Source: Clostridia bacterium
Lineage (GTDB): Bacteria; Bacillota; Clostridia; UBA1381; UMGS1253
DNA length: 64,000 nucleotides
Assembly: GCA_045578865.1 (NCBI GenBank)
Contig: JAZNLB010000003.1
Coordinates: 559-64,558 of the forward strand
Direction of reading: 5' to 3'
A model generated the notes under the pieces. The model saw only the letters and a list, made by a program, of their open reading frames with translations. It was not told the DNA's origin and searched no databases. A program made the position numbers and the translations under genes. Below, one piece after another: positions 567 through 19,079 of this stretch; the stretch's first letter is position 1, and every line of letters begins with the position of its first letter.

Positions 567-742
567 AATTATTAATATCACCAGAACAACATTAGCGCTG
601 TCAAATTATTGACAAAACTTGATAAAATGAATATAATTGTAGTATTAGAAAGTGAGTATATTACAGATAGCAGTTTAAACGATGCCCATGTCTAGATTAT
701 AATCATACATAACGAGAGAAAAAATGGGAACAGCCTTAGGAT
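567..742. repeat. Copy 1 of a ~175-bp direct repeat (divergent promoter region plus first codons of a GGDEF-type ORF)
   Basis: Aligns almost without gaps (one 1-nt indel), roughly three-quarters identical by eye, with 4861-5038. Shared blocks include attaatatcacc, attgacaa, gtattagaaa..tgagtatattaca, gtttaaac, attataatcatacat and aaaaaatg.gaacagc. Confidence 0.85.
609..637 (+). promoter_or_regulatory. Sigma-A type promoter upstream of galT
   Basis: TTGACA (609-614), 17-nt spacer, TATAAT (632-637): perfect consensus hexamers. Confidence 0.6.
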
Positions 743-851
743 ACAAGTTATGAGGATATACCACTTTTGTGGTATGCTCGTTGGACCTTTGTCGCGCAGT
801 AAAAATATTTTATAAAGCACATTTAGAAATTTGCAGAAAGAGGGGATAGAA

Positions 852-2345
852 ATGATAAATAGAAGAATTGACAAGTTAATATCATACGGATTAATGACGG
901 GGCTTATATATGAAAATGATGTAATATATGTACGCAATAAAATTCTTACAAGACTCGGTTTGGATTCATATGAAGAAACAAACGAAAGCTGTGAATCCAT
1001 TAGTGAAATAAGCGGAATATTAAAGGATATTACAGATTTTGCTGTAGAAAGAGGAATAATTGAAGATAGTATCATATACAGAGATATTTTTGATACTGAG
1101 ATTATGGATATTCTGACACCGTATCCGTCTACGGTTATAAAAACTTTCAATGAAAAGCATGAAAAAAGTCCTAAAGAAGCAACAGATTACTTTTATAGCT
1201 TGTCGTGTGATAGTAATTATATTCGCCGAGACAGAATTAAAAAAGACATAAAATGGAATGTAGAGTCTGAATATGGCGAGATTGAAATAACGATTAATTG
1301 TTCAAAACCGGAAAAAGATCCAAAAGCAATAGCTGCTGCGAAACTTCAAAAACAGTCATCTTATCCCAAATGTCAACTTTGTATTGATAATGAGGGCTAT
1401 GGTGGAAGAGTAAATCATCCTGCGAGACAGAATCATAGGATTATCCCTGTTCAAATATGCGGAGAACAATGGGGATTTCAGTACTCACCTTATGTTTATT
1501 ATAATGAGCACTGCATTCTTCTTAATGCAAAACACACACCTATGATTATTGATAAATCTGTTTTTTCAAAACTGCTTGATTTCATCAGACAGTTTCCCCA
1601 TTACATTGTTGGGTCAAATGCTGATTTGCCTATTGTTGGCGGTTCAATTTTGACACACGAACATTTTCAGGGCGGTAATCATATTTTTGCAATGCACAGA
1701 GCAGAAAGTGAAAAGTTTTATGATATAAAAGGGTTTGAAGATGTTGAAATAAGTCGATTAAAGTGGCCGATGTCGGTTATTAGATTAAAGAGTGATGATA
1801 AAGATAAGGTAATTGAATTATCCGCCAGAATTTTAAATAGTTGGAGAAGTTATTCTGACGAAAGTGCGTTTATCTTTGCCGAAACAGAGGGTGAACCACA
1901 TAATACAATTACGCCTATTGCAAGTATGAGTGATGGTAAATATGTAATGGACTTGGTATTAAGAAATAACATTACAACCGAAGAACACCCATTAGGGGTT
2001 TATCATCCGCATAAAGAACTTCATAATATCAAAAAGGAAAATATTGGCTTGATTGAAGTTATGGGACTGGCGGTTTTGCCATCAAGACTTGTTGAGGAAA
2101 TGAATGCAGTTGCAGATGCTCTTGTAAATGGTTTGGATTTAAGCAAAAACGAAAAGACAAAAGCGCACAAGGAATGGGTTGAGAAATTTAAAAATAATTA
2201 TTCTGAAATAAATAGGGATAATGTGAATGAAATATTAAGACAGGAGATTGGCAAAACTTTTGTTACCGTTCTTGAACACGCAGCTGTGTATAAACGCGAT
2301 AAATCGGGAAAGGATGCATTTGATAAGTTTATAAATCAAATATAA
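852..2345 (+). CDS. galT: Galactose-1-phosphate uridylyltransferase (type 2, Firmicute-like)
   Basis: Track ORF 831-2345. I prefer the ATG at 852, which follows AGAGGGGA. Length is ~497 aa. Has the HIT-like motif LTHEHFQGG, and lies in an operon with galM and galK. Confidence 0.9.
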   Translation: MINRRIDKLISYGLMTGLIYENDVIYVRNKILTRLGLDSYEETNESCESISEISGILKDITDFAVERGIIEDSIIYRDIFDTEIMDILTPYPSTVIKTFNEKHEKSPKEATDYFYSLSCDSNYIRRDRIKKDIKWNVESEYGEIEITINCSKPEKDPKAIAAAKLQKQSSYPKCQLCIDNEGYGGRVNHPARQNHRIIPVQICGEQWGFQYSPYVYYNEHCILLNAKHTPMIIDKSVFSKLLDFIRQFPHYIVGSNADLPIVGGSILTHEHFQGGNHIFAMHRAESEKFYDIKGFEDVEISRLKWPMSVIRLKSDDKDKVIELSARILNSWRSYSDESAFIFAETEGEPHNTITPIASMSDGKYVMDLVLRNNITTEEHPLGVYHPHKELHNIKKENIGLIEVMGLAVLPSRLVEEMNAVADALVNGLDLSKNEKTKAHKEWVEKFKNNYSEINRDNVNEILRQEIGKTFVTVLEHAAVYKRDKSGKDAFDKFINQI

Positions 2346-2355
2346 GTGAGAAGAA

Positions 2356-3381
2356 ATGTATGTAGTTAAGACGAAAATCGGCTATTATAATCATGAGGAT
2401 ATTTGTTTATATACCATCGACAATAAAAAAGGTTTGTCAGCACAGATGCTTAATTATGGTGGTATAATAACTAAGCTCATTTATAATGGAGTAGATGTGG
2501 CGCTGGGGCACAACAATTTAGAGGAATACTTCGGCAATGACGGGTATTTCGGTGCGCTCATTGGCAGAAATGCTAATCGTATTGAAAACGCAGAATTTGA
2601 ACTCAATGGCAAAGTATACAACCTTTTTGCAAACGATGGAAAGAACAATCTGCATGGTGGAAAAGAAGGCTTTGATAAAAAAATATGGGATGTCACAATC
2701 GTTGATGAAGAAGAACCTTCGCTTGTTTTGTCTACTATAAGCAAGGACGGCGAAGAAGGCTTTCCGGGGAATGTGAACATACAGGTAACATATACACTAA
2801 CAAATGATAACTGTCTGAAAATTCATTATGTGGGTGAAAGTGATGCAGATACTGTGCTTAATATGACAAATCACACATATTTTAATCTAAATGGTCATTC
2901 AAGCGGAGTTGTTGATGACCATATGCTCTGGATTGACAGTGATTTTTATACTCCAATTTCAGATAAATGTATTCCAACCGGTGAAGTGCTTAGTGTAAAA
3001 AATACGCCATTTGATTTTTCTGCTGAAGATACCCTAAAAGAAAGATTGAAGTCAGAATACGAACAAATTAAAAAGTTCGGCGGTTTTGATCATAATTTTA
3101 TTCTCAATGGTCGAGGGTATAGAAAGGTTGGTAAATGCACAGGCAATAAGACTGGTATTGTTATGGAGATATATACCGACCAAAGTGGTATGCAGGTATA
3201 TTCAGGGAATGGGATAGATGAAAATCGTGTGTGCAAGGACGGCGTAACCTACGGTAAACATTGCGGAATATGTTTTGAAACTCAAAGCTTTCCAAACAGC
3301 ATGAAGATTACGCACTTCCCAAATGCAATTTTGAGAAAAGGCGAAAAGTACGACACGGTCACAACATATAAATTTATATAA
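2356..3381 (+). CDS. galM: Aldose 1-epimerase (galactose mutarotase)
   Basis: 341 aa with typical mutarotase blocks (GRNANRI, NLHGG..GFDKKIW, NMTNHTYFNL, GFDHNF). Sits between galT and galK. Confidence 0.85.
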   Translation: MYVVKTKIGYYNHEDICLYTIDNKKGLSAQMLNYGGIITKLIYNGVDVALGHNNLEEYFGNDGYFGALIGRNANRIENAEFELNGKVYNLFANDGKNNLHGGKEGFDKKIWDVTIVDEEEPSLVLSTISKDGEEGFPGNVNIQVTYTLTNDNCLKIHYVGESDADTVLNMTNHTYFNLNGHSSGVVDDHMLWIDSDFYTPISDKCIPTGEVLSVKNTPFDFSAEDTLKERLKSEYEQIKKFGGFDHNFILNGRGYRKVGKCTGNKTGIVMEIYTDQSGMQVYSGNGIDENRVCKDGVTYGKHCGICFETQSFPNSMKITHFPNAILRKGEKYDTVTTYKFI

Positions 3382-3406
3382 ATTCTGATATAAGGATGGG
3401 ATTCAT

Positions 3407-4591
3407 ATGACAGTTCAAGATATGAAAAAAATGTTTTTAGAGGTTTATGGTGGTGATGATTTAGAACTTCGTATATTTGAATCGCCGGGCAGAGTGAATC
3501 TTATTGGTGAGCATATTGACTATTGTGGCGGTTGTGTAATGCCGGCGGCACTTACAATGAAAACTACAATTATTGCAAGAAAAAGAAATGACGATGTTAT
3601 TCGTTTGAAAGCAACTGATTTGGATTTGATGGTTGAAACAACTATACCTGAAATGGCGAAACTCAAAGGTAAAATAAAATGGGGAGATTACCAAATAGGT
3701 GTGGCTTTGGAACTCATAAATGCCGGATATGATATTTGTGGTTGTGATTTATTATACGATGACACAGTTCCACATGGCGGCGGGCTTTCGTCATCTGCCG
3801 CAATAGAGGTATCTACTGCACTCATGTTTGCCACCTTTGCAAATGAAAAGACGGGAAGCAATAAAGAAATCGACATGATAGAAATGGCGTTGCTTTCGCA
3901 AAAAGCAGAACATAATTTTATTGATGTAAAATGCGGAATTATGGATCAGTTTGCATCTGCTATGGGAAAAGCAGACCATGCAATATATTTGAACTGTGCC
4001 ACATTGGAGTATGAGCACATACCGCTAAAAATGGACGGATACAAAATTGTGCTTACAAATACCAATGTAAAGCATTCTCTTGGCAGTTCCAAGTATAATG
4101 AAAGACGAAAAGAATGTGAAGAAGGCTTATCTGTATTAAAAACTGCCATGCCGAATATTAATCAGCTTGCTGATGTTTCACCTGAAAAATTTGAATTACA
4201 TAAAGACCTAATAGCAGATTTGATCGTGCAAAAACGCATAAAGCATGTTGTATATGAGTGCGACAGAGTTAAAAAGAGCGCCCAAGCTCTAAAAAACAAT
4301 GAAATTGATAAATTCGGGGAATTCATGAATGCTTCTCATAATTCTTTGCAATATGATTATGAGGTTACATGTCCTGAATTAGATTTTGTCGTACAGGAAG
4401 GAAGACAAATCGAGGGTGTTCTTGGAATAAGAATGACCGGGGCAGGATTTGGCGGCTGTACTGTGGCTATCATAAAGGATGAGAGCATTGATAAGTACAT
4501 TGAAATTGTTGGGACAAAATATAAAGAAAAATTTGGACACGAAGCTACATTTTATGTTACAGAAATAGGAGACGGCGGTAGAGAAATATAA
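3407..4591 (+). CDS. galK: Galactokinase
   Basis: 394 aa. Galactokinase signature GRVNLIGEHIDY and GHMP kinase motif PHGGGLSSSAA. Confidence 0.95.
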   Translation: MTVQDMKKMFLEVYGGDDLELRIFESPGRVNLIGEHIDYCGGCVMPAALTMKTTIIARKRNDDVIRLKATDLDLMVETTIPEMAKLKGKIKWGDYQIGVALELINAGYDICGCDLLYDDTVPHGGGLSSSAAIEVSTALMFATFANEKTGSNKEIDMIEMALLSQKAEHNFIDVKCGIMDQFASAMGKADHAIYLNCATLEYEHIPLKMDGYKIVLTNTNVKHSLGSSKYNERRKECEEGLSVLKTAMPNINQLADVSPEKFELHKDLIADLIVQKRIKHVVYECDRVKKSAQALKNNEIDKFGEFMNASHNSLQYDYEVTCPELDFVVQEGRQIEGVLGIRMTGAGFGGCTVAIIKDESIDKYIEIVGTKYKEKFGHEATFYVTEIGDGGREI

Positions 4592-4627
4592 AACAAAAGA
4601 AACTATAAAAATCATTTGGCTCGACCT

Positions 4628-4677
4628 AAAAGAATAGCACATGATTTGTTCAAAACAATCATGTGCTATTCTTTTTC
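4628..4677. terminator. Bidirectional intrinsic terminator between convergent galK and the XRE gene
   Basis: 16-bp perfect stem: agaatagcacatgatt (4631-4646) pairs with aatcatgtgctattct (4657-4672). Flanked by an A-run and a T-run. Confidence 0.8.
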
Positions 4678-4866
4678 AAACTTAATAATGTCTTCTACTT
4701 TGCAATCAAGTGCATAACAAAGGGCATCAAGAGTTTTGGTGCTGATTGCTTCACCCTTTTTTATTCTGTGGAGAGTGTTTGCAGAAAAACCTTGTTTAAA
4801 TATCAAAAAATATTCAGTTAATCCCTTTTTAAAAAGAGTATTATAAAAAGGTTTGTAACTAATCAT
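4666..4866 (-). CDS. Small XRE/Cro-type helix-turn-helix transcriptional regulator
   Basis: Track ORF 4666-4878. The ATG at 4866 follows GGTGA. Sequence ...FSANTLHRIKKGEAISTKTLDALCYALDCKVEDIIKF is a typical short HTH_XRE protein. Confidence 0.8.
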   Translation of the reverse strand: MISYKPFYNTLFKKGLTEYFLIFKQGFSANTLHRIKKGEAISTKTLDALCYALDCKVEDIIKFEKE

Positions 4867-5038
4867 TAATATCACCAAAACAATATTATCATACTTAAAG
4901 TATTGACAATACTCAACAAAATGAGTATAATCGTTGTATTAGAAAAATGAGTATATTACATTCAACGGTTTAAACTGTACCCATACCTACATTATAATCA
5001 TACATGAAGAGGGGAAAAAATGAGAACAGCATTGGGAT
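4861..5038. repeat. Copy 2 of the ~175-bp direct repeat (functional XRE/GGDEF divergent promoter region)
   Basis: See 567-742. This copy runs from the XRE start codon to the first ~6 codons of the GGDEF gene. Confidence 0.85.
4903..4931 (+). promoter_or_regulatory. Sigma-A type promoter of the GGDEF gene
   Basis: TTGACA (4903-4908), 17 nt, TATAAT (4926-4931). Paralogous to the promoter at 609-637. Confidence 0.6.
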
Positions 5039-5616
5039 TGACAGCGGTCATAACAATATTACTAATGATTATTATATTAAAACTTTTATTAAAAATTCGA
5101 GTTCTTCGCAAAAAAAATAAATATGTTGATGAAGCAAATATGTGGCATAGACTTGCCGTTACAGATGACTTAACAGGGATTTATAATAGAAATGCGTATA
5201 ACATATATATGGAGAGGGCCAAAGTAGACGCGAAACATAAAGAAAGGGGAATTATCCTTTTCGATGTTGATAATTTTAAAATAATCAATGACACACAAGG
5301 TCATCTGGCTGGAGATGCTGTGTTGAAGAATGTGGCGAAAAATCTTACGGAGGTTTTTTTAGAGCCTCAATATAGTGTTTTTCGTATAGGTGGAGATGAA
5401 TTTGCTGTTTTGTCCAAAGGCGTTTCAGAAAAGGAAATGATTGAACGGTTGATTATTTTAAGAAAGATACTCAACGATAATGGCGATATCAGTTTATCAA
5501 TAGGATATTCAATGATTAAAGATACGCAGGAGAAAGCATTTGGGTATGCAGATGATATGCTTTATGCGGATAAACTATCTAAAAAATTGCGAAACTGTCC
5601 TTTGGAGCCCACATGA
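5020..5616 (+). CDS. Membrane-anchored diguanylate cyclase (GGDEF domain)
   Basis: 198 aa. N-terminal hydrophobic helix (LTAVITILLMIIILKLLL), then a GGDEF domain with an intact RIGGDEF active-site motif and DDLTGIYNR. I see no RxxD I-site 5 residues upstream. Confidence 0.9.
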   Translation: MRTALGLTAVITILLMIIILKLLLKIRVLRKKNKYVDEANMWHRLAVTDDLTGIYNRNAYNIYMERAKVDAKHKERGIILFDVDNFKIINDTQGHLAGDAVLKNVAKNLTEVFLEPQYSVFRIGGDEFAVLSKGVSEKEMIERLIILRKILNDNGDISLSIGYSMIKDTQEKAFGYADDMLYADKLSKKLRNCPLEPT

Positions 5617-5695
5617 TTTTCCCATCAGTTTTAGTTAAAGTTTAAAATGTTGTGTCTCCTCAATAGACAAGAGAATAGGAAATTTTGTATGGCGA

Positions 5696-5729
5696 GTAAA
5701 GGCTCTCACAAAGTTGTGAGAGCCTTTAC
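5696..5729. terminator. Strong hairpin downstream of the GGDEF gene (probable terminator; T-tract poor)
   Basis: 15-bp perfect stem gtaaaggctctcaca / tgtgagagcctttac with loop aagt. It is not followed by a clear U-run. Confidence 0.45.
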
Positions 5730-5771
5730 TGTCTTTAACAGAGCAATTATAAAGAAGTGCTTTTTTAAGTT

Positions 5772-5847
5772 ATTTAGATAATTGTCTAAATAGGTGTTGA
5801 CAGGCAAGGGGTTTTGAGGTATACTATATTTAGATAATTATCTAAAT
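5772..5847 (+). promoter_or_regulatory. Promoter flanked by twin 20-bp palindromic operators (probable SdpR/ArsR autoregulatory sites)
   Basis: atttagataattgtctaaat (5772-5791) and atttagataattatctaaat (5828-5847) bracket TTGACA (5797-5802), 17 nt, TATACT (5820-5825). Confidence 0.7.
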
Positions 5848-5868
5848 GCTTTGAGGAGAGGTGGAATT

Positions 5869-6138
5869 ATGGGGATAAATGAAACATTAAAGGCGATTTC
5901 CGACCCGATGCGCCGCGAGATTTTACAGATACTCAGAGACGGAAGAAAATCCGCAGGTGAAATTGCCGAGCGGTTTGATTTAACGGGAGCGACGGTATCA
6001 TACCATTTGGCAAAATTAAAAAGTGCGGATTTGATTGCTGAGCAAAAACACAAAAACTTCATTTATTATGAACTCAATGCATCTGTATTTGAGGAAGTTT
6101 TGAGTTGGATTTATACTTTGGGAGGGAGACTAAAATGA
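5869..6138 (+). CDS. sdpR: ArsR-family autorepressor, SdpR-like
   Basis: Track ORF 5851-6138. ATG at 5869 after GAGGAGAGGTGG. Sequence ISDPMRREILQILRDGRKSAGEIAERFDLTGATVSYHLAKLKSADLI is an ArsR-type winged HTH. ATGA overlap with the downstream SdpI-like gene. Confidence 0.8.
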   Translation: MGINETLKAISDPMRREILQILRDGRKSAGEIAERFDLTGATVSYHLAKLKSADLIAEQKHKNFIYYELNASVFEEVLSWIYTLGGRLK

Positions 6139-6749
6139 AAAAGATTAAATGGAAATATATGATGTTGACCTGTACAATTTGCCTGCTGCCGATTATTTTT
6201 GGCATAATTTTATGGGACAAATTACCGCAGACCATTGCAATACATTTTAATTTATACAATGAGCCGGACGGGTTTACAACCAAAGGCTTTGCAGTATTCG
6301 GGCTGCCTGTTATGATGGCGTTTTTGCAGGCAATCAGCTGCCTGATTAACGATATTAACGCGTTCAAGTATGGCGAGCGCAAGAAATTTGAGCATGCAAC
6401 AAAATGGATTATTCCTATAATGTGTATACTTCTGCAAGCCGCAACGCTTGCGTACGCACTGGGCAGAGCCGTTGATATCCGCAGGGTTGCCTGCGGGATT
6501 GTCGGCGTGATATTTTTGGTAATCGGCAATTATTTGCCGAAACTCGATTATGTTAAAAGCTATGATCTTGATACGCAGAAGTCGAGAAAAATTAACCGTT
6601 TTATCGGTTATGAAAGTTTTGTGCTGGGGCTTTTGTTTATCCTCGGCATTTTTCTGCCGCCGGCATTTAATGTTGCGTGCCTACTGCTTTTAATTCCGTA
6701 TGCGATTGTTTCTGTGGTTTACAGTGTTTGGGTTATAAAAAGAGGATAA
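6135..6749 (+). CDS. sdpI: SdpI/YhfL-family integral membrane (immunity/signal) protein with DUF1648-like N-terminus
   Basis: ATG at 6135 after GGAGGGAG. Multi-pass membrane protein. N-terminus LPIIFGIILWDKLPQTIAIHFNLYNEPDGF is typical of the family. Coupled to an SdpR-like repressor. Confidence 0.7.
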   Translation: MKKIKWKYMMLTCTICLLPIIFGIILWDKLPQTIAIHFNLYNEPDGFTTKGFAVFGLPVMMAFLQAISCLINDINAFKYGERKKFEHATKWIIPIMCILLQAATLAYALGRAVDIRRVACGIVGVIFLVIGNYLPKLDYVKSYDLDTQKSRKINRFIGYESFVLGLLFILGIFLPPAFNVACLLLLIPYAIVSVVYSVWVIKRG

Positions 6750-6810
6750 CTTGCATAATTACATCCGAAGACGGACATACTTTCCGTATTAAAACAAAGG
6801 ATGTGAAAGC

Positions 6811-7245
6811 ATGGTAGAACCAGATACAATTAAACTTTTGCGTGAATGTGATGCGGGTGTGAAGATGGGGGTTTCCTCCATTGAAGAGGTGTTAGATTAT
6901 GTGGACAGTGATTCGCTCAAACAAATTCTCACGAAAAACAAAGAGGAGCATGACAAACTGGATGTGCAGATTCAGGCTCTTTTAGACACATACCGCGATG
7001 AAGGCAAAGAGCCTGCACCGATTGCCAAGGGTATGTCGTGGATGAAAACCAATTTTAAACTTGCGATGGACGAATCGGATGCAACGGTGGCAGATTTGAT
7101 GACAGACGGTTGCAACATGGGCGTAAAGTCGCTTTCCAAGTATTTAAACCAGTATGCGGCGGCGGACGAAAAAAGCAAGGACATCACAAAATCGCTCATT
7201 CATTTGGAAGAACAGTTGGCGGTGTCGCTTCGAGCGTACTTGTAA
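6811..7245 (+). CDS. Hypothetical all-helical protein (family not confidently recognised)
   Basis: 144-aa ORF with an AAAGGA RBS and its own terminator. Charged, helix-prone sequence with no diagnostic motif. Confidence 0.6.
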   Translation: MVEPDTIKLLRECDAGVKMGVSSIEEVLDYVDSDSLKQILTKNKEEHDKLDVQIQALLDTYRDEGKEPAPIAKGMSWMKTNFKLAMDESDATVADLMTDGCNMGVKSLSKYLNQYAAADEKSKDITKSLIHLEEQLAVSLRAYL

Positions 7246-7256
7246 AAAAGAAAAAA

Positions 7257-7290
7257 GCATCTAAGACAAAGGGCTTGGATGTTTTTTTCT
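7257..7290 (+). terminator. Intrinsic terminator
   Basis: Stem catctaag / cttggatg (8 bp including one G-U) followed by TTTTTTT (7282-7288). Confidence 0.6.
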
Positions 7291-7415
7291 TTTTGTGTTC
7301 CGGTCTTTGGGGGTGAATTGACAATCGGGGCATACTGTGATAACATTATACATAGATATTCAAATAATAAGCGAAGTTTAATTGTGCTTCTGCAATTAAG
7401 AAGGAGGACAACGGT

Positions 7416-7994
7416 ATGAATATTTGTGTATACGGAGCATCGAGTAACAGTATTGATAAAATTTATTTGGAGACTGCCTATACATTGGCGTCCAAAATGG
7501 CAAAACGCGGCCATACGCTTATATACGGCGGTGGCGGGAATGGTGTGATGGGCGCTTGTGCGCGCGGAGCAAACGATAATGGCGGCAAGATTGTTGGCAT
7601 TTCACCAAAATTTTTCACGGTGGATGGTGTGCTCTATGACAACTGTACGGAATTTATTTTCACTGAGACCATGCGAGAGAGAAAAAGGATTTTGGAAGAC
7701 CGTTCCGATGCCTTTGTAATTGCACCGGGTGGTATCGGCACCTTTGATGAGTTTTTTGAAATTTTAACGCTCAAACAACTAGAGCGCCATAATAAACCGA
7801 TTGCAATTTTCAATGTAAAGGGCTATTATGACTTGATGATTGAAATGCTCAACAAGACGGCGGAAGGCAAGTTTATGACGAAAAAAAGCTTAGAACTTTT
7901 CGAAGTGTTTGATGAGGCGGAGGACCTGCTCGACTATATTGAAAATTATGATGAAGCGCCGATAGACATCCGTGAGTTGAAGGATATCGGCTGA
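7416..7994 (+). CDS. LOG-family protein (TIGR00730 type; nucleotide 5'-monophosphate N-glycosidase / cytokinin riboside 5'-monophosphate phosphoribohydrolase-like)
   Basis: 192 aa. Signature motifs GGGGNGVMG and PGGIGTFDEFFE. RBS AAGGAGGA. Confidence 0.85.
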   Translation: MNICVYGASSNSIDKIYLETAYTLASKMAKRGHTLIYGGGGNGVMGACARGANDNGGKIVGISPKFFTVDGVLYDNCTEFIFTETMRERKRILEDRSDAFVIAPGGIGTFDEFFEILTLKQLERHNKPIAIFNVKGYYDLMIEMLNKTAEGKFMTKKSLELFEVFDEAEDLLDYIENYDEAPIDIRELKDIG

Positions 7995-8048
7995 TATTGA
8001 CTTTATACAAAGGATACAAATTGCAAACGAATGCGAGGGGGAAGAAAA

Positions 8049-11000
8049 ATGGATATTAAAAAGCAGGTTTCGAATTTTTACAGAAGTTTCAACTGTAATC
8101 CCGTCATTTTATATGTAGGGCAAAACATATCCGTTTCGGATTTGAAGGCGCATATTGTCGGCTTGCCGTGGAGTTGCGTGCTGACCAGCCGTCGGGAACC
8201 GGAATTTGCCGGTTTATTTGCCACGGAATCTCGAGAAGTAAGAGATTGCGCTAAAAAAGAAGATATTCCGGCAAAACCGATTAATAAGCAGATGCTCAAT
8301 GTGTTGCGTTTGTATGGTATCGAAGGCGAGGAAGATGAAAAAAACGAGCTGTTAGCACAGATGTTTTCGGGCAGGGATTCGGGAATTTCTGCAAAACAGA
8401 CGGTTGCGGCAGAAATGTTTCGTGTTTTAAATTCCCTGCTTGATTGTGCCAGTCAGTTGGTGGTAGTTGGTTACGACCAAACCAACGAAGGCGAGCTTTC
8501 GCTTTATGATTTTTGTTCCACATTACTTGGAGACCGCATCCCGAACGGCAGCGTGCATATCTGGGGTATAGATGCCGAGGATGAAAATAACAAGCCGATT
8601 GAGATGCTGGCTGCCGAAAAGAAATTTGAGCTGATTCCTACATCGCTTGCCGAAGCGCTTATCGAGGCAGGTAAAACGGAAGAAGATGTGATGATGCCGA
8701 GTTATATCGAGACGGGCGATGATGTTTTCTATTGCGACAAAGCGCCGATCGGTATATCTCAAGATGACCTTGTGCAGTTTCGCCATATGGCAACATTGTT
8801 GACGGAAAAAACCGTTAATGCGGTGCGCCCGTACGGCAAGTCAATGTATGAAAGATGGTTTTTTAATTTCTTAAATTCAAGTTCAACGGAAGGTCCGCAG
8901 TGGTATGGCTACCTGTCGAAGTTTTATGTAAAGAGAAGTTTTGAAGATCCGCTTGCGGTGCTGGTTCGCAAGATGCTTGACGGTACAATTCCGCTTGAAA
9001 AACGCGGTCCGGTTATTTTGGAAGGCCCGTCCGGCAGCAGTAAGAGTGTAACGCTTGCGGCGCTCGCATATCGCATATTCAACGAAGGTCTTTGTCCGGT
9101 TATCTTTATCAAAAAGGACTCGTTTTTGTTTTATAATGAAAGCGAGGAAATGAATAAACTTGAAGAGTTGATGCGTCTTATTGATGAAAAAACGCAAAAG
9201 CAGATGCGTATTTTGATTGTATGGGACTGTTCGTCTTACCGTTCAGTAGAGGTCAATGCTTTGCGCCTGACCAGACAGCTGCAAAACAAGGGATTTCGCT
9301 TTGTGTTGGTGTGCAGTGCATACGGCCGCCCGTTTGAGAGCGGACAGACCAATGAGTATTTTAGAACAGAAGAGCCGAGCAAGTTGTTTGCCTGCAAAAA
9401 AGAGGAGGCGCAGATTGTCAAGAGCCGTTCCTGCTATTATATCAATGCTTGCCGTGATATGACCAAGCGTGAAATTGTGGATTTGTGGAATCGTATTTCG
9501 GACTATTCAGGATTAAGTCCGGAGACCATCCGCTATTGGAAAAATCGTTTTGAGCAGCAAAATGAAACGAGTATTTTCCAGTACTTTTATCGACTGATTG
9601 CACTTTTGCGACCGAATCTGGAGCGCGGTCTTTCGCGCGAAGAACAAAAAATATGGCAGTATGTGGAAGCGCAGGTGCGCGAGATTTTGGATGCGCCGGA
9701 GGAGGAAAAGCCACTCACGGCAATGGAGCTTGCTTTGCAGCGTGCAGGGCTGGATATCTCAACATTGCATGCAGAGCAGGGAGAAAATGATGCAGAGACG
9801 GACAATATCGACATGGAGGCATTTTGCCTTTGCATTGCGATGTTCAGCCGTTTTAAACTGGAGGTACCATACAACATTGCTTTTCAAAGTTTGACGGGGA
9901 TGAGCAATGCAAATATGGTTTATTCTGCCACGCACAGAAAACTTTTTGAAATAATTACAAAAATTCCGCTCGTTTACTATGGAGAAAGCGAGGCGGACGG
10001 CGATTATGCTTTCCGTTTCAGAAATGCGTTTGAAGCACAATTATTCTTGGAGCGTAAAGACCCGACGGGCGAAAAGCAGTTGAAGCAAATTTTGCAGATT
10101 ATCCGTCTTTACAATGAAGAATATGAGAGAAACCGTTTTGAAGACGAGCGCTTTAAAAAGAGTTTGATTGACTTTTTGCGCCTTATTGGTCCGAACTCGG
10201 ATTATTATAAAGGCAAAGAGCATGAATATGATGTTGACCATTTGTATATCTTGGGCAATCTGGATAAGTTGGTTGCAGAAGTGGAAGCGCTTGATGTGCC
10301 AAATAAGGATGGCGGATTTACTCAGTTGTCGGTTACTTTTATGCGTGAGTTTTTCGGTAAACTTTGGGATGCCAGAAGCACGGAGCGCGGCGTAAAGAAG
10401 TGGGAAGCATGTCCGGACCACTTTAATAAAGAAACCTACGAACTGCGTATCGAACAGTTAAGTAAGGCGCGTCGCTTGGCAGATGAGTGTGTGGAAACGC
10501 TGAAAAATAAGATTGATGACTTGACAATGCATTGGGAAAACAAGCAACGAATGGCGGAAGAAAAGAATTCGTTGGCAGTGGAAACTGCGCTGATTAATGC
10601 GACCATTGAGCGATTGGAAAAAGAATATAGCGAATGTTGCAAGGAAAACGGACAGACACCGGAAGAAAAGTATTGTGTATTGCATACAGAGTATCAGGAA
10701 ACTTTCCGTCAACTTGAAAAGGTGATTTATTACAACCCGCTCAACGGTTATGCCTATAATGCGCTTTTTAGTGCTTTTGAGCAGATGTATAATAAGGAAA
10801 GTGTTTCGCAAGAAAAGAAGCTGCAACATTTAAGTGAGATTATGCCGCTTGTGGACTTGGCGACCAATCCGGATATTGTTAACCGTGGCGAGAGAGAAGA
10901 TGAACTCAGCAAGCATGTGCAAAGAATTTATGATTTCAGTAAAGGCTATGCGATTACAATTGATCGAATTTTAGCGCGTGGCGAGCAAGAAATGGCCGAT

Positions 11001-11783
11001 GAAGCGATGGAGGTATACTTTAAACTTTATGATGCGCTTATGGAGTCGAATAATCCGGCGGCAATCTTGTTTGTTTGTCAAAAGGAACTGGCAGCGGCAC
11101 AGATTTCTTCTGAAACAGTGGATGAACTCAGTACAGCACAGTTGGAGGTTTGTCAAAAGGTACGCAAATTTATGAGCAGTTCCGACAACTACGATTGTGT
11201 TTCCACAAAAGCCAATGCGATGGCGCTTTTGATACGCACCACATGGATGTGTGCAAACAAGCGTCCATTAACGGGTGGTCGTGACCGACAGTTGACATAT
11301 CTGGACGATAGGCAGTGGCGCGAAGTTCAAAGACTTTGCCGCACCTACGAGGAAACGGCAAGCCATATCGGCTATCAGCCGGTTATTATGTTGATTTATG
11401 CGTTGTCCGAAATTCAGGTCAATGCAGATTATCGGGCAGCAAGTGATATTTTACGAAAACTCAGTGAAGGCCGATTCTTTAATTTGTCCAGAATGAGAAC
11501 GCCGTATATGATTTGTAAGAAGGATGGCAGCGGGCAGTTGGAAACCTTTACCGGTCGTGTAAATTACATTCAGGACACCAGAAAAGGCAGTTTCAAGATT
11601 GCAGGAATTCCTGATCGCTTGATTGGCGGAGAGTATGGCGTGCACTTTGTATGTCAGAATCTCGGCATTAAGAGTATGCCGCCGCTGAATAAAAGATATG
11701 ATGACCTTGAACTCGGCCTGGGATATATGGGCTTGACTGCTTATACCGAACAGGGCAGGAAGGAACGAGGTGAGTCGGTATGA
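8049..11783 (+). CDS. Large (1244 aa) uncharacterised P-loop NTPase with a degenerate SIR2-like N-terminal module and a long helical C-terminal region (STAND/NLR-like architecture)
   Basis: Track ORF 8031-11783. I prefer the ATG at 8049 after GAGGGGGAAG. Walker A GPSGSSKS (nt 9024-9047). Walker B-like RILIVWDCS (nt 9207-9233). N-terminal motif order VILYVGQNIS / WSCVLTSRRE / VLRLYG / LVVVGYDQTNE parallels SIR2_2, but the catalytic positions are substituted. The remaining ~800 aa are helix-rich. The family call is from pattern memory only. Confidence 0.85.
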   Translation: MDIKKQVSNFYRSFNCNPVILYVGQNISVSDLKAHIVGLPWSCVLTSRREPEFAGLFATESREVRDCAKKEDIPAKPINKQMLNVLRLYGIEGEEDEKNELLAQMFSGRDSGISAKQTVAAEMFRVLNSLLDCASQLVVVGYDQTNEGELSLYDFCSTLLGDRIPNGSVHIWGIDAEDENNKPIEMLAAEKKFELIPTSLAEALIEAGKTEEDVMMPSYIETGDDVFYCDKAPIGISQDDLVQFRHMATLLTEKTVNAVRPYGKSMYERWFFNFLNSSSTEGPQWYGYLSKFYVKRSFEDPLAVLVRKMLDGTIPLEKRGPVILEGPSGSSKSVTLAALAYRIFNEGLCPVIFIKKDSFLFYNESEEMNKLEELMRLIDEKTQKQMRILIVWDCSSYRSVEVNALRLTRQLQNKGFRFVLVCSAYGRPFESGQTNEYFRTEEPSKLFACKKEEAQIVKSRSCYYINACRDMTKREIVDLWNRISDYSGLSPETIRYWKNRFEQQNETSIFQYFYRLIALLRPNLERGLSREEQKIWQYVEAQVREILDAPEEEKPLTAMELALQRAGLDISTLHAEQGENDAETDNIDMEAFCLCIAMFSRFKLEVPYNIAFQSLTGMSNANMVYSATHRKLFEIITKIPLVYYGESEADGDYAFRFRNAFEAQLFLERKDPTGEKQLKQILQIIRLYNEEYERNRFEDERFKKSLIDFLRLIGPNSDYYKGKEHEYDVDHLYILGNLDKLVAEVEALDVPNKDGGFTQLSVTFMREFFGKLWDARSTERGVKKWEACPDHFNKETYELRIEQLSKARRLADECVETLKNKIDDLTMHWENKQRMAEEKNSLAVETALINATIERLEKEYSECCKENGQTPEEKYCVLHTEYQETFRQLEKVIYYNPLNGYAYNALFSAFEQMYNKESVSQEKKLQHLSEIMPLVDLATNPDIVNRGEREDELSKHVQRIYDFSKGYAITIDRILARGEQEMADEAMEVYFKLYDALMESNNPAAILFVCQKELAAAQISSETVDELSTAQLEVCQKVRKFMSSSDNYDCVSTKANAMALLIRTTWMCANKRPLTGGRDRQLTYLDDRQWREVQRLCRTYEETASHIGYQPVIMLIYALSEIQVNADYRAASDILRKLSEGRFFNLSRMRTPYMICKKDGSGQLETFTGRVNYIQDTRKGSFKIAGIPDRLIGGEYGVHFVCQNLGIKSMPPLNKRYDDLELGLGYMGLTAYTEQGRKERGESV

Positions 11784-12769
11784 GAAATGGTTTGATGGGC
11801 AATCATGTAGAACTGCTCAATTCTGCAGTTCAGACGCAGATTGCCAAGCATCTGTTTCTGGTGTGCAACTATCAGCCGGTGCCGATGGCAGCGCCTCATG
11901 CAAGTACAAGGTTTTTAATTCGAATTCAGGAGCTATATAAAGTAGTCGCGGACTGTGGCGATTTGGTACGCAAGATGAAAAAAATTTTGCCGAAGCATGT
12001 ACTTGAGAAGCATAAAAATCTTGAGGCTATGCTGGAAGAAGAGCTTGAACCAAAGGTTAAACTGGTTGAACTGCTGCGTTTTGTAGTTGATCATAATAAT
12101 GCTGAGGAAAACGGGTATGAGCAACAACAGCAGTTGCAGCAATACGAGATTTGGGTTAAGAAACAGATTTCAAAACCTCAACCGGAAACGGAAGAAGATT
12201 ACGAGGTTTTAGACAGTGCATTGGAAGTGCTTTCCGATGAACTTTGTGCAGTTATTCATCGCGTTATTGTCTATATCGGAGAAATGCAGTATGCCGATAA
12301 AAGCAGTATAATTCGGAAGTGGGAATGGCAAATTCTCGACTGGTATGCGCGGCCGTTCGGCAATTTATATTATGGCTTTCTGGCAATGACATACTTTTCC
12401 AAAGCGCGCAGCAGGGATGGTAAATTTGAGTTCGTAGACGATGCACAAAGAACCGTATGTGTTGAGGAGTGGGTTTCTCGTATGCTTCGTCATGAACTGC
12501 AAACGAAAATCGATGGTACAAAAGCGGCGATTGAAGTTTGCGGACCAATACCGGTTTTGCTTGAACAACTGGAGACGGAGCAGGCAGAACTGGAAGGGTT
12601 GGAAGCTGAAATTCAAAAGGAAAAGGGCGACAGGAGATATTTTTTAAATCGCTTGCCGGAGTGGCTTCGTGAAACGATGAGAGAATGTCACTGCTCGATG
12701 TTGCCGCAGGAATTGATTGATGAGGATATTAAGCGCCGATTTGAGTCTGTGCCGACCGCTGATTTTTAG
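11780..12769 (+). CDS. Hypothetical 329-aa protein, translationally coupled partner of the large NTPase
   Basis: Its ATG overlaps the upstream stop as ATGA (11780-11783). Helical/coiled-coil-looking, with a Q-rich patch (EQQQQLQQ). No recognisable motif. Followed by a strong terminator. Confidence 0.75.
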   Translation: MRNGLMGNHVELLNSAVQTQIAKHLFLVCNYQPVPMAAPHASTRFLIRIQELYKVVADCGDLVRKMKKILPKHVLEKHKNLEAMLEEELEPKVKLVELLRFVVDHNNAEENGYEQQQQLQQYEIWVKKQISKPQPETEEDYEVLDSALEVLSDELCAVIHRVIVYIGEMQYADKSSIIRKWEWQILDWYARPFGNLYYGFLAMTYFSKARSRDGKFEFVDDAQRTVCVEEWVSRMLRHELQTKIDGTKAAIEVCGPIPVLLEQLETEQAELEGLEAEIQKEKGDRRYFLNRLPEWLRETMRECHCSMLPQELIDEDIKRRFESVPTADF

Positions 12770-12776
12770 TGATAAA

Positions 12777-12817
12777 GGGGGTGTAAAACTTGGTTTTTAC
12801 ATTCCCTTTTATTTTTT
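12777..12817 (+). terminator. Intrinsic terminator closing the 8049-12769 operon
   Basis: Stem gggggtgtaaaa / ttttacattccc (12 bp including 2 G-U) with a 6-nt loop, followed by TTTTATTTTTT. Confidence 0.8.
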
Positions 12818-13048
12818 CTGCGTTGCAACGAAAATGCTTTTTGATAGTTTTGCTTAAGCAGGTGCGGGTATAAAACCGAGTTTTCGGCGGGAGTGTTCGT
12901 CAATCGTGCATCCGAAGCAAGTGTTAAAGCGCTTGCGGAGCACGCGATTGGAAAGGGTAACGACCGAAGATGGTGAAATTTTTAATTCATCTTGTAACAC
13001 ATCATTGACAAACCTACAAAAAACGCGAAAGAATGTGCACCAAGTGTA

Positions 13049-13077
13049 TTGACGAGAGTGCGAAAAAATTATATAAT
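13049..13077 (+). promoter_or_regulatory. Sigma-A type promoter of cysE-cysS
   Basis: TTGACG (13049-13054), 17 nt, TATAAT (13072-13077). The leader to the cysE ATG is only ~40 nt. Confidence 0.6.
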
Positions 13078-13117
13078 ATGGTGTGGTGTATAAGGAGAAA
13101 TTGTAAAGGAGACGGGT

Positions 13118-15150: not shown

Positions 15151-15271
15151 ATTTCGCACATTGCGTCGTTGCAACCGACGGCTCGTATCCGAGTACTGTG
15201 TCGCCGTTTGCGCCTGGCGCTGTATTGAAAAATCCGTTTTTAAATAAAAACAGGAGAAAAAGGCAATCGTT

Positions 15272-16572: not shown

Positions 16573-17520
16573 ATGGCAGAATTAAAACCGATTGCAACCA
16601 GACTTGCGTTTGGTGAAGAACTTGCCGAGATTGGCGGCAGAGAAGATATTGTAGTTTTGGATGCAGACCTGAGTAAGTCAACGATGACCTACATTTTTAA
16701 AGAAAAGTATCCGGAGCGTTTTGTGAATTGTGGTATTGCAGAAGGCAACATGATGACAACGGCGGCAGGTCTTGCCTCCACAGGCAAAAAAGTATTTGCG
16801 GCTTCTTTTGCGATGTTTTCTACGGGTAGAGCATATGAGCAAATCAGAAACTCTATCGCATACCCGAATTTAGGTGTTTGCGTTGTTGGTTCGCACGCAG
16901 GTCTCACTGTTGGCGAGGACGGCGCATCGCATCAATGTATTGAAGATGTTGCGCTGATGCGTGCAATGCCGAATATGACTGTAATTTCTCCGGCAGACGG
17001 TACGGAAACCAAAGCGGCTCTGCGTGCGATTGCGGACTACAAGGGTCCGGTGTATCTGCGTGTTTGCCGTCTGGCTATGCCGATTTTATTTGATCCGGAC
17101 GAATACGGCACATTTGAAATTGGAAAGGGCAAGGTGTTGCGTGAGGGCAGCGATATTGCAATTATCGGTTCCGGCCTTTTGCTTCATGAGGCTGTAAAGG
17201 CTGCACAGGCGCTTGAAGAGCAAGGTATTAGCGTAAGATTGGTAGATATTGCGACCATTAAACCGCTTGATGAAGAATTGGTAATTGAATCTGCAAAGAA
17301 ATGCGGCGCCGTTTTGGTGTGTGAAGAGCATAATGTGATTGGTGGTCTCGGCGGCGCGGTTGCAGAAACCCTTTCTAAAAACTGCCCAACCATTATGGAT
17401 ATTATCGGCGTAAAGGATACCTTCGGTTGCTCCGGTGATCCAATGCAGTTGTTGGAAAAATTTGAAATGAGTGCTTCGCATATTGAAAAAGCAGCTAAGG
17501 CACTTATTGCAAAGAAATAA
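16573..17520 (+). CDS. Transketolase, C-terminal (pyrimidine-binding) subunit
   Basis: 315 aa. NCGIAEGNM block. Starts 2 nt after the N-terminal subunit gene. Confidence 0.9.
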   Translation: MAELKPIATRLAFGEELAEIGGREDIVVLDADLSKSTMTYIFKEKYPERFVNCGIAEGNMMTTAAGLASTGKKVFAASFAMFSTGRAYEQIRNSIAYPNLGVCVVGSHAGLTVGEDGASHQCIEDVALMRAMPNMTVISPADGTETKAALRAIADYKGPVYLRVCRLAMPILFDPDEYGTFEIGKGKVLREGSDIAIIGSGLLLHEAVKAAQALEEQGISVRLVDIATIKPLDEELVIESAKKCGAVLVCEEHNVIGGLGGAVAETLSKNCPTIMDIIGVKDTFGCSGDPMQLLEKFEMSASHIEKAAKALIAKK

Positions 17521-17531
17521 TTTGAGGAAAC

Positions 17532-17565
17532 AAAAAATCTCTCCACTATGCGGAGAGATTTTTTA
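17532..17565. terminator. Bidirectional intrinsic terminator (transketolase / deacetylase convergent pair)
   Basis: Stem aatctctcc / ggagagatt, with an A-run upstream and a T-run downstream. Confidence 0.75.
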
Positions 17566-17609
17566 ATTGGTTACTTTAATTTTGTCTTTGCCCAATCGGG
17601 CATAACTTT

Positions 17610-18893
17610 TTAAGGCATGTTATAATACACGCTGTCTACATCAAAGAAGGTTTTGTTGATGAAATCCTTTTTAGTACGCATATTGTAGCGGTCGAGGTTC
17701 AAACGCTCTGAGAAGAGTACCCCCTCGTCCGTTTCATAGGTACGCATCGCCGGGCTGACCGGACAAAAGATGTTGTAGCCCATATTTTTCATGTATTGCA
17801 AGCGGTCATCGCCTTCCGGGAGAAAATAGCCGAAAGGACTGATGTAGATATCGGTGTTGTGGATCAAGTCTGCGATGCGCTCTTTAAAGCGGTTTGTATC
17901 ATAGGTTAGGTCTTCCATTTCCACACCGCCGTCGCGAAAATAGTCGTTGTGCGTGTAGCTGTGGCATGCAAGAAGCCAACCGGTATCGAGTAGTTTTTGC
18001 GTGATTTTGAGCGCCTCAGCCTTTGCCTTTTCCTGTTCTTCACCTTCAAGCTTTACGGTGCGGTAGCCAAAAACGCCCTCGTACCCCGTCACGGCAACAA
18101 TGCCTTTTGCTCCCCGCCAAGAAAAGTCGGGGTGTTCGCGCACAAATTCATCGAGAATCGGCATTACATCGCCGTCGTAAGTAACGATAACTTCGCCGCT
18201 CGGCGTGGTTACTTCGCACGCAAGATTTCCTTCGTCATTGATTACAAGTCTGTCTGCAAAGCCGTCGCCTTTCATATATTCGTAGTAGTTTACATCGTCA
18301 ATGGAAATGATGAGGGGTTTTTTCCCCGGCGGCAGTAAAATTTCACCGTCTGCCTTGACTTGGTCGAGCGGAAAGAGTATAAAGTCGCGCTCGTAGAGTT
18401 GCGGCAGCATCGCCTTAAACTCGGAAACGGTGGTCATCCACATATCGTAGCCTTCGTGTTTGTAGTCGCCGTCAAAGGCGAGTTCGGGGTAGATAATCAA
18501 ACTGTGGAAAAAGACATGATAATACTGTCCGTCATAGGGAACAAGAGCCGCCTTTGCCGTTTCGATTTCTTGTTTTAATGTAAGCACTGCCTCTTTTTGT
18601 GCATACTTGGATTCGGAAAGCAGCGTCAGCGCCTCATCGTAAAAATAACTTTTGGAGAGTGCTCTTGCCTCCTCGAGCGTTGTATCGAGTTTGGAGGCAG
18701 ACGACTGACCGCTGTTTTGCATGCAACTTTGTATACCAAGCACGAGACCCGCAATCAGGACAAGCGCGCCGAGTAACAGTATAATTAAGCGCCAGGGCAA
18801 GTGTGTTTTTCGCTTTTTGGGCGGTCTTCCCGGTTGCACTGCGCCGATGGATTCGAGCAAATCTTCTCTGGATATTTCGAGGGAATTGTTCAT
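17610..18893 (-). CDS. Membrane-anchored polysaccharide deacetylase-family protein
   Basis: 427 aa. N-terminal TM helix (WRLIILLLGALVLIAGLVLGI). NodB-like motifs IISIDDV and CHSYTHNDY. Confidence 0.6.
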   Translation of the reverse strand: MNNSLEISREDLLESIGAVQPGRPPKKRKTHLPWRLIILLLGALVLIAGLVLGIQSCMQNSGQSSASKLDTTLEEARALSKSYFYDEALTLLSESKYAQKEAVLTLKQEIETAKAALVPYDGQYYHVFFHSLIIYPELAFDGDYKHEGYDMWMTTVSEFKAMLPQLYERDFILFPLDQVKADGEILLPPGKKPLIISIDDVNYYEYMKGDGFADRLVINDEGNLACEVTTPSGEVIVTYDGDVMPILDEFVREHPDFSWRGAKGIVAVTGYEGVFGYRTVKLEGEEQEKAKAEALKITQKLLDTGWLLACHSYTHNDYFRDGGVEMEDLTYDTNRFKERIADLIHNTDIYISPFGYFLPEGDDRLQYMKNMGYNIFCPVSPAMRTYETDEGVLFSERLNLDRYNMRTKKDFINKTFFDVDSVYYNMP

Positions 18894-19007
18894 AACGGTT
18901 CTCCTTTATAGCAAATCTTAAATTCATTATAAAGGAGAAAATACAATTTGTCGATATAATTCGACAAAATTTGCAAAAAAATATGGCAGAAAAAAGTCAA
19001 CAAACAG

Positions 19008-19036
19008 ATTGAAATTTGCGGCTGAATTGGGTATAA
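19008..19036 (+). promoter_or_regulatory. Sigma-A type promoter of trxB
   Basis: TTGAAA (19008-19013), 17 nt, TATAAT (19031-19036). Confidence 0.55.
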
Positions 19037-19079
19037 TTATAATGTAATTTAAAGTTAGATGTGGAAAAGAGGAACAATC

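Follow-up and report, generated by a model that had tools for sequence, protein, structure and literature searches.

A predicted SIR2-derived pseudo-enzyme domain on a STAND NTPase with a conserved partner gene in a Clostridia bacterium

Prokaryotic immune SIR2 domains are almost automatically taken to be effectors that deplete nicotinamide adenine dinucleotide (NAD). Does this assumption hold for a SIR2-like domain whose signature catalytic positions are substituted? The question is raised by gene A, a 1244-amino-acid (aa) open reading frame (ORF) at 8049..11783 of a 64,000-nucleotide (nt) stretch of Clostridia bacterium DNA (the window; assembly GCA_045578865.1, contig JAZNLB010000003.1, positions 559 to 64,558). 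The product of gene A combines a SIR2-like domain with an nSTAND5-type STAND NTPase, helical repeats and a C-terminal beta-barrel. A first-pass annotation, made from the letters of the window, had recognised four motifs in SIR2 order at 8049-8560, judged each of them to be altered, and proposed that the domain is probably not an NADase. On the basis of family profiles and a structural model, we conclude that the N-terminal domain (N-domain) is a SIR2-derived pseudo-enzyme, in which the fold is predicted to be kept and three of the four NAD-contacting motifs, together with the whole lid, to be lost. All features of the window given below lie on the + strand.

Fold of the N-terminal domain

We found that a family profile built from 47 diverse N-termini of the gene A family (alignment A1) matched KomC, a SIR2 NADase in the Protein Data Bank (PDB), with an expectation value (E) of 5e-4; KomC was the only sequence-profile match of the domain. 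The conserved blocks were collinear in the two proteins: the profile block viLfvGqnvs aligned with VILFVGAGVS of KomC, pWScViTsrrde with FPIIYTTNYDRW, and ilrLfG with IIKFHGDFD, whose H is KomC's catalytic residue, H146 (mutated in PDB entry 9xvc, H146N). The four motif strings singled out by the first-pass annotation all lie in one ORF translation, and the parallel that it drew with the SIR2 motif order is borne out by this alignment.

An AlphaFold2 model of residues 1-285, built on alignment A1, reached a predicted local distance difference test score (pLDDT) of 88.5 and a predicted template modelling score of 0.77. The N-domain in this model has six parallel-type strands and forms a three-layer Rossmann 'large domain' with the SIR2 strand order. 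Each of the four motifs lies at the C-terminal end of its expected strand (b1, residues 19-23; b2, 43-46; b3, 82-87; b4, 136-140). When the model was compared with the PDB by Foldseek, ranks 1-38 were all SIR2 domains, among them those of KomC, ThsA, DSR2 and human SAMD9 (best E 3.9e-6, probability about 1.0; SAMD9 structures at E 2.4e-4), with SIR2-HerA and SPARSA lower down the list; the first non-SIR2 match had a probability of 0.23. The first-pass annotation had suggested a structure prediction and a profile alignment as checks on its proposal. Both were run: the predicted structure is SIR2-like, and the motifs are in register with those of KomC, so that no intact Asn or His had been overlooked through misreading. 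Since the profile and the fold search are independent methods and agree, the SIR2 fold assignment and the motif registration are confirmed. The domain is larger than had been annotated. Its start at 8049 stands, but the proposed end at 8560 is too short, as the fold reaches approximately residue 207 (nt 8669); the SIR2-fold Rossmann core, which lacks the lid and the catalytic residues, thus spans residues 1-207 (8049..8669), as delimited by the model, Foldseek and the family profile.

Other searches were negative. Scans of the gene A protein against Pfam, PADLOC and NCBIfam returned no SIR2 match and only weak nSTAND5 and P-loop matches, and a single-sequence phmmer search of residues 1-290 (counted from an upstream ATG at 8031) against the PDB found nothing. 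The Pfam family SIR2_2 (PF13289) did not match the window protein, and scored below threshold in 3 of the 47 members, with a best E of 0.011.

Catalytic motifs and lid

Gene A has 120 homologues at 24-73% identity, none of them named and at least 113 of them full-length; the 113 full-length homologues were used to count residues at the SIR2 motif positions. The first motif comprises strand 1 and the Gly loop (VILYVGQNIS, residues 19-28, 8103..8132; GAGxS in SIR2) and aligns with KomC VILFVGAGVS. We found that G24 is invariant and that positions 25 and 26 are variable and bulky, with Q/R/K and then N/S/G/D, not A-G. In the second motif (WSCVLTSRRE, residues 41-50, 8169..8198; TTNxD in SIR2), the alignment shows T46 to be invariant and S/T47 to be present in 110 of the 113 homologues. 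The position of the catalytic Asn that follows (48) is Arg in the window and is occupied by R in 66, S in 18, C in 10 and N in 8 homologues. Position 50, the acidic residue of TTNxD, is Glu in the window, and D and E in 65 and 16 homologues, respectively.

The third motif, VLRLYG (residues 85-90, 8301..8318; xxxxHG in SIR2), aligns with KomC IIKFHG and carries Tyr in place of the catalytic His. Across the homologues, position 89 is F (53), Y (34), L (9), C (7) or, in a single case, H; G90 is found in 100 of 113, and the sole homologue with H at position 89 has lost this Gly. The fourth motif, LVVVGYDQTNE (residues 137-147, 8457..8489; fvGySl.D in SIR2_2), is the best kept in the alignment: G141 is invariant and is mostly followed by Y and then D/N, with Y142 in 69 of 113 homologues and an acidic residue at position 147 in 67. 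The earlier statement that each signature position is changed thus holds for the GAG, the catalytic Asn and the His, but not for the G-Y of the fourth motif or the acidic residue of TTNxD. Similarly, the view that the GAG, the Asn/Asp and the His are all replaced is right for the GAG, the Asn and the His, and wrong for the Asp position, which is acidic (Glu here, Asp in 58% of homologues).

The small domain of SIR2 proteins is the NAD lid (PMC13600222). In gene A, a single short helix stands at its position (8133..8168), as indicated by the model, the KomC alignment and the motif spacing. Helix 29-36 alone lies between b1 and b2 in the model, and KomC residues 23-84, the lid segment of about 60 residues that runs from the Gly loop to strand 2, are unmatched in the family profile. 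The distance from G24 to T46 is 21-23 residues in 113 of 113 homologues, compared with about 83 in KomC. The absence of the lid had gone unnoticed in the first-pass annotation, and the predicted loss of this element makes the case against NADase activity stronger than was argued there.

A profile search of 1.84 billion cluster representatives extended the family to at least 464 clusters at 50% identity (E <= 1e-3), mostly from gut Clostridia, of which 251 were found at E <= 1e-10. In the 150 best representatives the SIR2-like domain is N-terminal in proteins of approximately 1100-1300 aa, and 121 representatives could be scored for the motifs. The spacing between G24 and T46 was 19-24 residues in every representative that aligned. 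The full set of G[AGS]G, Asn, Asp and His/Asn-Gly occurred in none of the 113 homologues and in none of the 121 wider representatives. Relics of it were found among the latter: the Asn (TTN) in 14, NG at the His position in about 13 and G[AGS]G in 5, the NG relics never together with the full motif set. The conclusion that the domain is probably not an NADase is therefore upheld by motif losses across the family as well as by the missing lid.

One distant subclade (P0236, P0245, P0250 and P0251, about 1130 aa) carries a 56-residue insert at the lid position and already reads GQx, TS[AS][IF]D and YL[YF]G, without the GAG, the Asn or the His. These proteins may be evolutionary intermediates between an active SIR2-STAND protein and the lidless form. 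The relic motifs and the lid-bearing subclade fit descent from a genuine SIR2, and to judge by these sequences the loss of chemistry was probably independent of the loss of the lid, and earlier than it. The SIR2-like domain is not decaying: averaged over columns, the N-terminal 285 residues are as conserved (33% identity) as the whole protein (35%), neither T46 nor G141 varies, and the positions of the former active site rank among the most conserved of the domain.

The STAND body, the partner gene and the neighbourhood

As mechanically called, the ORF of gene A spans 8031..11783 (+) and begins MRGGRK.... Its likely start is the ATG at 8049, which is preceded at the proper distance by GAGGGGG and agrees with the N-termini of all homologues; a 1244-aa database copy (P0001) likewise begins at this position. 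The Shine-Dalgarno-like GAGGGGG falls within the six codons between the two ATGs, and from the sequence the ATG at 8031 is probably not used.

The N-domain is followed by a linker sub-domain (residues 208-285, 8670..8903), delimited by the model and by conservation, which consists of a beta-hairpin and helices and ends in the highly conserved LLTE...RP.G...F.NFL..S..GPQW. By analogy, the linker may correspond in position to the 'delta domain' that lies between SIR2 and NOD in SAMD9 (PMC13600222). The P-loop NTPase domain (8904..9458; Pfam, alignment) carries Walker A GPSGSSKS at 9024-9047 and Walker B ILIVWD at 9210-9227. We found a weak match of the window protein to Pfam nSTAND_NTPase5 (PF25199) at residues 283-422 (19.8 bits against a cut-off of 34, E 7.4e-4); the same family matched 34 of 39 diverse family members, with a best E of 6.8e-12, and nSTAND3, the type found in Avs5, matched 8 of the 39. 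Walker A K332 and Walker B D393 (hhhhWD) are invariant in the family. In Walker A, Ser replaces the usual Gly before the Lys, and 110 long family members have SSKS; Walker B continues as WD[SC]SS (9210..9236), with no second acidic residue after D393. Such a site may bind nucleotide yet hydrolyse it slowly.

Beyond the NTPase, the model and Foldseek point to a helical and winged-helix part with long TPR-like repeats of helices behind it (9459..11498, the presumed sensor), and then to a small C-terminal beta-barrel (residues ~1151-1232, 11499..11744; strands at model residues 881-947). The model of residues 286-1244 (pLDDT 85.7) comprises the alpha/beta NTPase, helical or winged-helix-like modules with a beta-hairpin, about 650 residues of helical repeats and the beta-barrel. 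R1148, P1152, C1156, G1162, G1169 and G1223 are conserved in the C-terminal region. Foldseek matched this body to the Avs5 filament 9nc9 (E 1e-4, probability 1.0), which was the best specific match, and to ORC/Cdc6-type AAA+ and TPR proteins. No nuclease, protease, TIR or other effector domain was recognisable anywhere in gene A.

Gene B, identified by its ORF and its linkage to gene A, encodes a 329-aa conserved partner of no recognised family (11780..12769). Its start overlaps the stop of gene A by 4 nt (ATGA, within GTATGA), and the same overlap is found at loci L001 and L004. In 13 of 13 loci examined (3 from exact-protein look-ups and 10 from a genome scan), the ORF immediately downstream of the gene A homologue is a gene B homologue, usually of 328-360 aa. 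Compared over the same loci, gene B is the faster to diverge, with 21-36% identity as against 24-44% for gene A. At locus L011, gene B is split into two ORFs (169 and 221 aa), and the homologue at L016 (10834..11580) is N-terminally truncated to 248 aa, without the LFLxCNYxP region; these two cases may reflect decay of the partner or assembly errors.

An alignment of 10 diverse partners (A4) revealed the motif L-R-x4-H-N-x-S-x3-G (LRFVVDHNNAEENG; 12074..12115), in which L99, R100, H105 and G112 are invariant and N106 and S108 are at least 90% conserved. Gene B has about ten invariant polar residues, the Rx4H pair included. The R100-x4-H105 spacing fits the HEPN Rx4-6H motif, although the residue after the R is not the usual polar one, and one gene B member scored 0.051 against Csx1/Csm6, which is not significant. 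Two sequence searches with gene B recovered just 2 and 5 relatives, all of them unannotated. Gene B could thus possibly be a HEPN-like RNase, but since no family match goes beyond Rx4H, we regard this as a motif-level lead and not as a finding. The two-gene operon ends in a terminator-like hairpin with a T-run (12774..12809), which begins 5 nt after the gene B stop and consists of a 15-pair stem followed by TATTTTTT.

Upstream of gene A, separated from it by 54 nt, is a LOG-family gene (7416..7994; Pfam Lysine_decarbox E 6.7e-39, SLOG cluster 4). SLOG domains are known from conflict systems. We considered this gene as a part of the system and rejected it, as the homologues at L001, L004 and L006 have no such gene beside them; it is probably a housekeeping gene unrelated to the operon. 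The region from 5000 to 15500 contained no Rfam RNA element.

The A-B cassette was found in Pseudoflavonifractor capillosus ATCC 29799, in Faecalibacterium prausnitzii ATCC 27768 and in metagenome-assembled genomes (MAGs) of Oscillospiraceae, Lachnospiraceae and Coriobacteriaceae. Defence or mobile-element genes lie near it in 6 of 9 contexts other than the window. The neighbours include tyrosine integrases (L001); a serine recombinase, ThsA_Macro and DUF4062 (L006); a DrmD-like helicase (L013); a Nhi/AbiO-like SLFN-helicase-GIY-YIG protein (L015); and, upstream of the cassette in F. prausnitzii ATCC 27768 (L016), Wadjet JetC (665..4045; PADLOC E = 0, 1286 bits). In a Lachnospiraceae MAG (L004), genes for an 811-aa KAP-NTPase-like and a 940-aa adenosine-deaminase-like protein stand directly upstream of the gene A homologue, and a 1240-aa TIR_2 beta-propeller protein is encoded downstream (2507..7781, 17169..19792); we take the pairing of the KAP NTPase with the adenosine deaminase to resemble RADAR. 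Gene A relatives with 33% and 25% identity are present on two IMG/VR contigs classed as viral (L019 and L020), and tblastn of gene A against the GenBank phage and PLSDB plasmid collections returned nothing. Two metagenome scaffolds (L007 and L008) carry, about 6 kb downstream of the cassette, a metallo-beta-lactamase-fold gene annotated as Anti-Pycsar Apyc1 family (17928..18803). Another Lachnospiraceae MAG (L017) has a gene for a 523-aa ADP-ribosylglycohydrolase (4206..5774; Pfam E 2.3e-39) that ends 74 nt before the gene A homologue and is not conserved at other loci. Taken together, the scattered occurrence and the neighbouring genes suggest, but do not prove, that the cassette is mobile and serves defence.

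Interpretation and known systems

Sequences and models show a SIR2 fold that lacks its catalytic residues and lid, attached to a STAND NTPase with intact motifs and linked to a partner gene at every locus examined; from this we infer a role in defence, a scaffold or regulatory function for the SIR2-like domain and an effector role for gene B. On the evidence of sequences and models, we favour with moderate confidence the reading that genes A and B form a two-gene Avs-like module, in which the dead SIR2 is an assembly or regulatory part. Gene A would act as an NTP-dependent switch: the C-terminal helical repeats and beta-barrel would sense a trigger, and the nSTAND5-type NTPase would drive oligomerisation. 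The conserved former active-site face of the dead SIR2 would have become a protein-protein surface for contacts within and between molecules, holding the resting state and, after activation, making SIR2-SIR2 or SIR2-partner contacts, as in SAMD9. Among solved structures, the active SIR2 effectors closest to this domain (KomC, ThsA and Avs5) form helical assemblies or filaments, to go by the titles of 8zsf, 8btp and 9nc9, and a dead SIR2 could thus retain the assembly function alone. Gene B would be the effector that is recruited or released on activation. It is the best candidate for a toxic effector because gene A has no recognisable effector, and because gene B is translationally coupled to it, evolves fast and has many invariant polar residues.

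Several observations weigh against this reading. No SAMD9 or Avs sequence in the PDB was matched by the full-length family profile, and the top 50 fold matches of the body (residues 286-1244) did not include SAMD9. Neither gene A nor gene B is recognised by PADLOC or NCBIfam, and gene B has no significant match, to HEPN or to any other family, in Pfam, PADLOC and PDB-profile searches. The neighbours of the operon in the window are housekeeping genes (a gal operon, a GGDEF protein, LOG, cysE-cysS and transketolase). Finally, what is said here about the pocket derives from alignment and secondary structure, not from superposed coordinates, and by analogy some non-canonical chemistry in the N-domain is conceivable, given that Avs5 stays active with Asn in place of His (PMC12931631).

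Four other explanations were weighed. The first retains a role for the pocket: the N-domain would be a ligand-sensing pseudo-enzyme, in which what is left of the Rossmann crossover binds a nucleotide or a signal derived from NAD (ADP-ribose (ADPR), cyclic ADPR isomers or similar) and so gates the STAND switch. The conserved former active-site face has indeed gained basic residues (R48 in 66, R/K49 in 54 and R87 in 69 of the 113 homologues), and the ADP-ribosylglycohydrolase gene at L017 and the ThsA_Macro gene near the cassette at L006 also speak for it. However, bulky variable residues stand in place of the GAG loop that binds pyrophosphate, the lid is missing, ADPR-related neighbours are not conserved between loci, and the operon has no linked signal-producing enzyme; we regard a ligand sensor as unlikely.

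It is more improbable still that the operon is a housekeeping signalling module and not an immune one, with the dead SIR2 as a structural relic. The window itself would suit such a role, as the operon lies between LOG and cysE-cysS, without mobile-element genes and without a guanine-plus-cytosine or other compositional anomaly around it, and 3 of the 9 other contexts have no recognised defence neighbour among the proteins tested. The loci beyond the window fit it poorly: the cassette is spread patchily over Oscillospiraceae, Lachnospiraceae and Coriobacteriaceae, the other 6 of the 9 contexts hold defence or mobile-element genes, two loci are on IMG/VR contigs, the partner evolves fast, and the architecture is typical of Avs proteins.

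We consider it very unlikely that the N-domain is still an NADase, or another NAD-consuming enzyme, that works with non-canonical residues in a site to which a neighbouring protomer or gene B might contribute in trans. Avs5 functions with NG for HG (PMC12931631), D/E50, T46 and the G-Y-D motif are kept in the gene A family, and oligomerisation typically activates SIR2 effectors. However, Arg replaces the Asn without which Avs5 gives no immunity (mutant N110A, PMC12931631), Tyr or Phe occupies the His/Asn position, the GAG and the whole lid are gone, and the complete motif set was found in no homologue or wider representative. Scarcely credible is a generic three-layer Rossmann-like domain of non-SIR2 origin that shows the SIR2-like motif order by chance: the non-significant Pfam SIR2_2 scores, Foldseek TM-scores of just 0.38-0.44 and a sequence identity of about 10% would allow it, but the top 38 Foldseek matches are exclusively SIR2, three collinear motif blocks match KomC, and relic TTN and NG motifs and a lid-bearing subclade are known in the family.

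A bolder form of the two-gene reading can be offered only tentatively, and we think it rather doubtful as a whole: genes A and B would be an undescribed antiviral STAND system of gut Firmicutes, in which a SIR2 NADase has turned into a non-catalytic assembly platform and killing has moved to a new family of trans-acting gene B proteins, recruited or released on oligomerisation. If true, this would be a bacterial counterpart, independently arisen, of the 'SIR2 as switch' mechanism of SAMD9. Although its chemistry and lid have been lost completely, the SIR2 fold is kept in the gene A family, and it is placed with respect to STAND as in human SAMD9/9L. The family would offer a small, genetically tractable bacterial system in which to study how a lidless SIR2 contributes to a STAND switch, be it by autoinhibition, by filament contacts or by recruiting a partner, and the uncharacterised gene B family is a candidate new effector. 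There is also a caution for annotation, as the label 'SIR2-STAND = Avs5-like NADase' would be wrong for gene A.

How, then, does gene A compare with known systems? The solved folds closest to its N-domain are those of KomC (Kongming), ThsA (Thoeris) and DSR2 (Foldseek E 3.9e-6 to 1e-3), which share its strand order and motif positions. Unlike gene A, these proteins have the lid, the catalytic Asn and His and NADase activity, and none is fused to an nSTAND5 NTPase. The contrast drawn by the first-pass annotation with ThsA, DSR, SIR2-HerA and Avs5 is correct, though it overlooked the precedent of SAMD9. By its motifs and predicted structure, the gene A family is not a SIR2 NADase family: GAGxS, the Asn of TTNxD, HG/NG and the lid were each looked for, and the family lacks them in the combination that defines such enzymes.

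By analogy, human SAMD9 appears to be the closest functional precedent for the N-domain. Its SIR2-like domain is lidless and non-catalytic, was judged unlikely to bind NAD and lies just N-terminal to a STAND NTPase; it serves autoinhibition and takes part in the SIR2/SIR2 and OB/SIR2 contacts that activation requires (PMC13600222). SAMD9-like bacterial STAND proteins (Avs9 and Avs6), and a similarity between Avs5 and SAMD9, have been described (PMC12680541, PMC12931631, PMC12803255). SAMD9/SAMD9L and gene A share the lidless SIR2 large-domain fold and the order of what comes directly after it: first a STAND NTPase, then helical repeats, and at the C-terminus a small beta-domain. In contrast to SAMD9 and Avs9, gene A has no AlbA_2 tRNase or other effector before its SIR2-like domain, which starts at residue 1 in the window protein and likewise in nearly all of the 150 best representatives. 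Walker A of SAMD9 reads GG[TS] (PMC5445408), whereas the Walker A Lys of gene A is intact, and gene A, unlike SAMD9, is accompanied by a conserved second gene. Because there is no sequence link and SAMD9 falls outside the top 50 fold matches of the body, the parallel is limited to the N-domain. Membership of gene A in the SAMD9/Avs9 family was considered and rejected, as its full-length profile found neither SAMD9 nor an Avs protein in the PDB.

Avs5, described as a SIR2-STAND protein, has GAGXS, TTNXD and HG/NG motifs and depletes NAD+; N110A and D112A abolish immunity, and the NG variant is active (PMC12931631). Gene A shares with Avs5 the order of SIR2, STAND NTPase and C-terminal helical repeats, and a few members of its family share the NG motif. 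The catalytic motifs and lid of Avs5 are lost in gene A, however, and the NTPase of gene A fits nSTAND5 far better than nSTAND3. Avs5 is a single-gene system, whereas the gene A family has a partner gene at every locus examined. On present evidence, the gene A family thus stands outside both the SAMD9/Avs9 and the Avs5 families; by analogy, it would resemble SAMD9/Avs9 most in the working of its N-domain and Avs5 most in its body.

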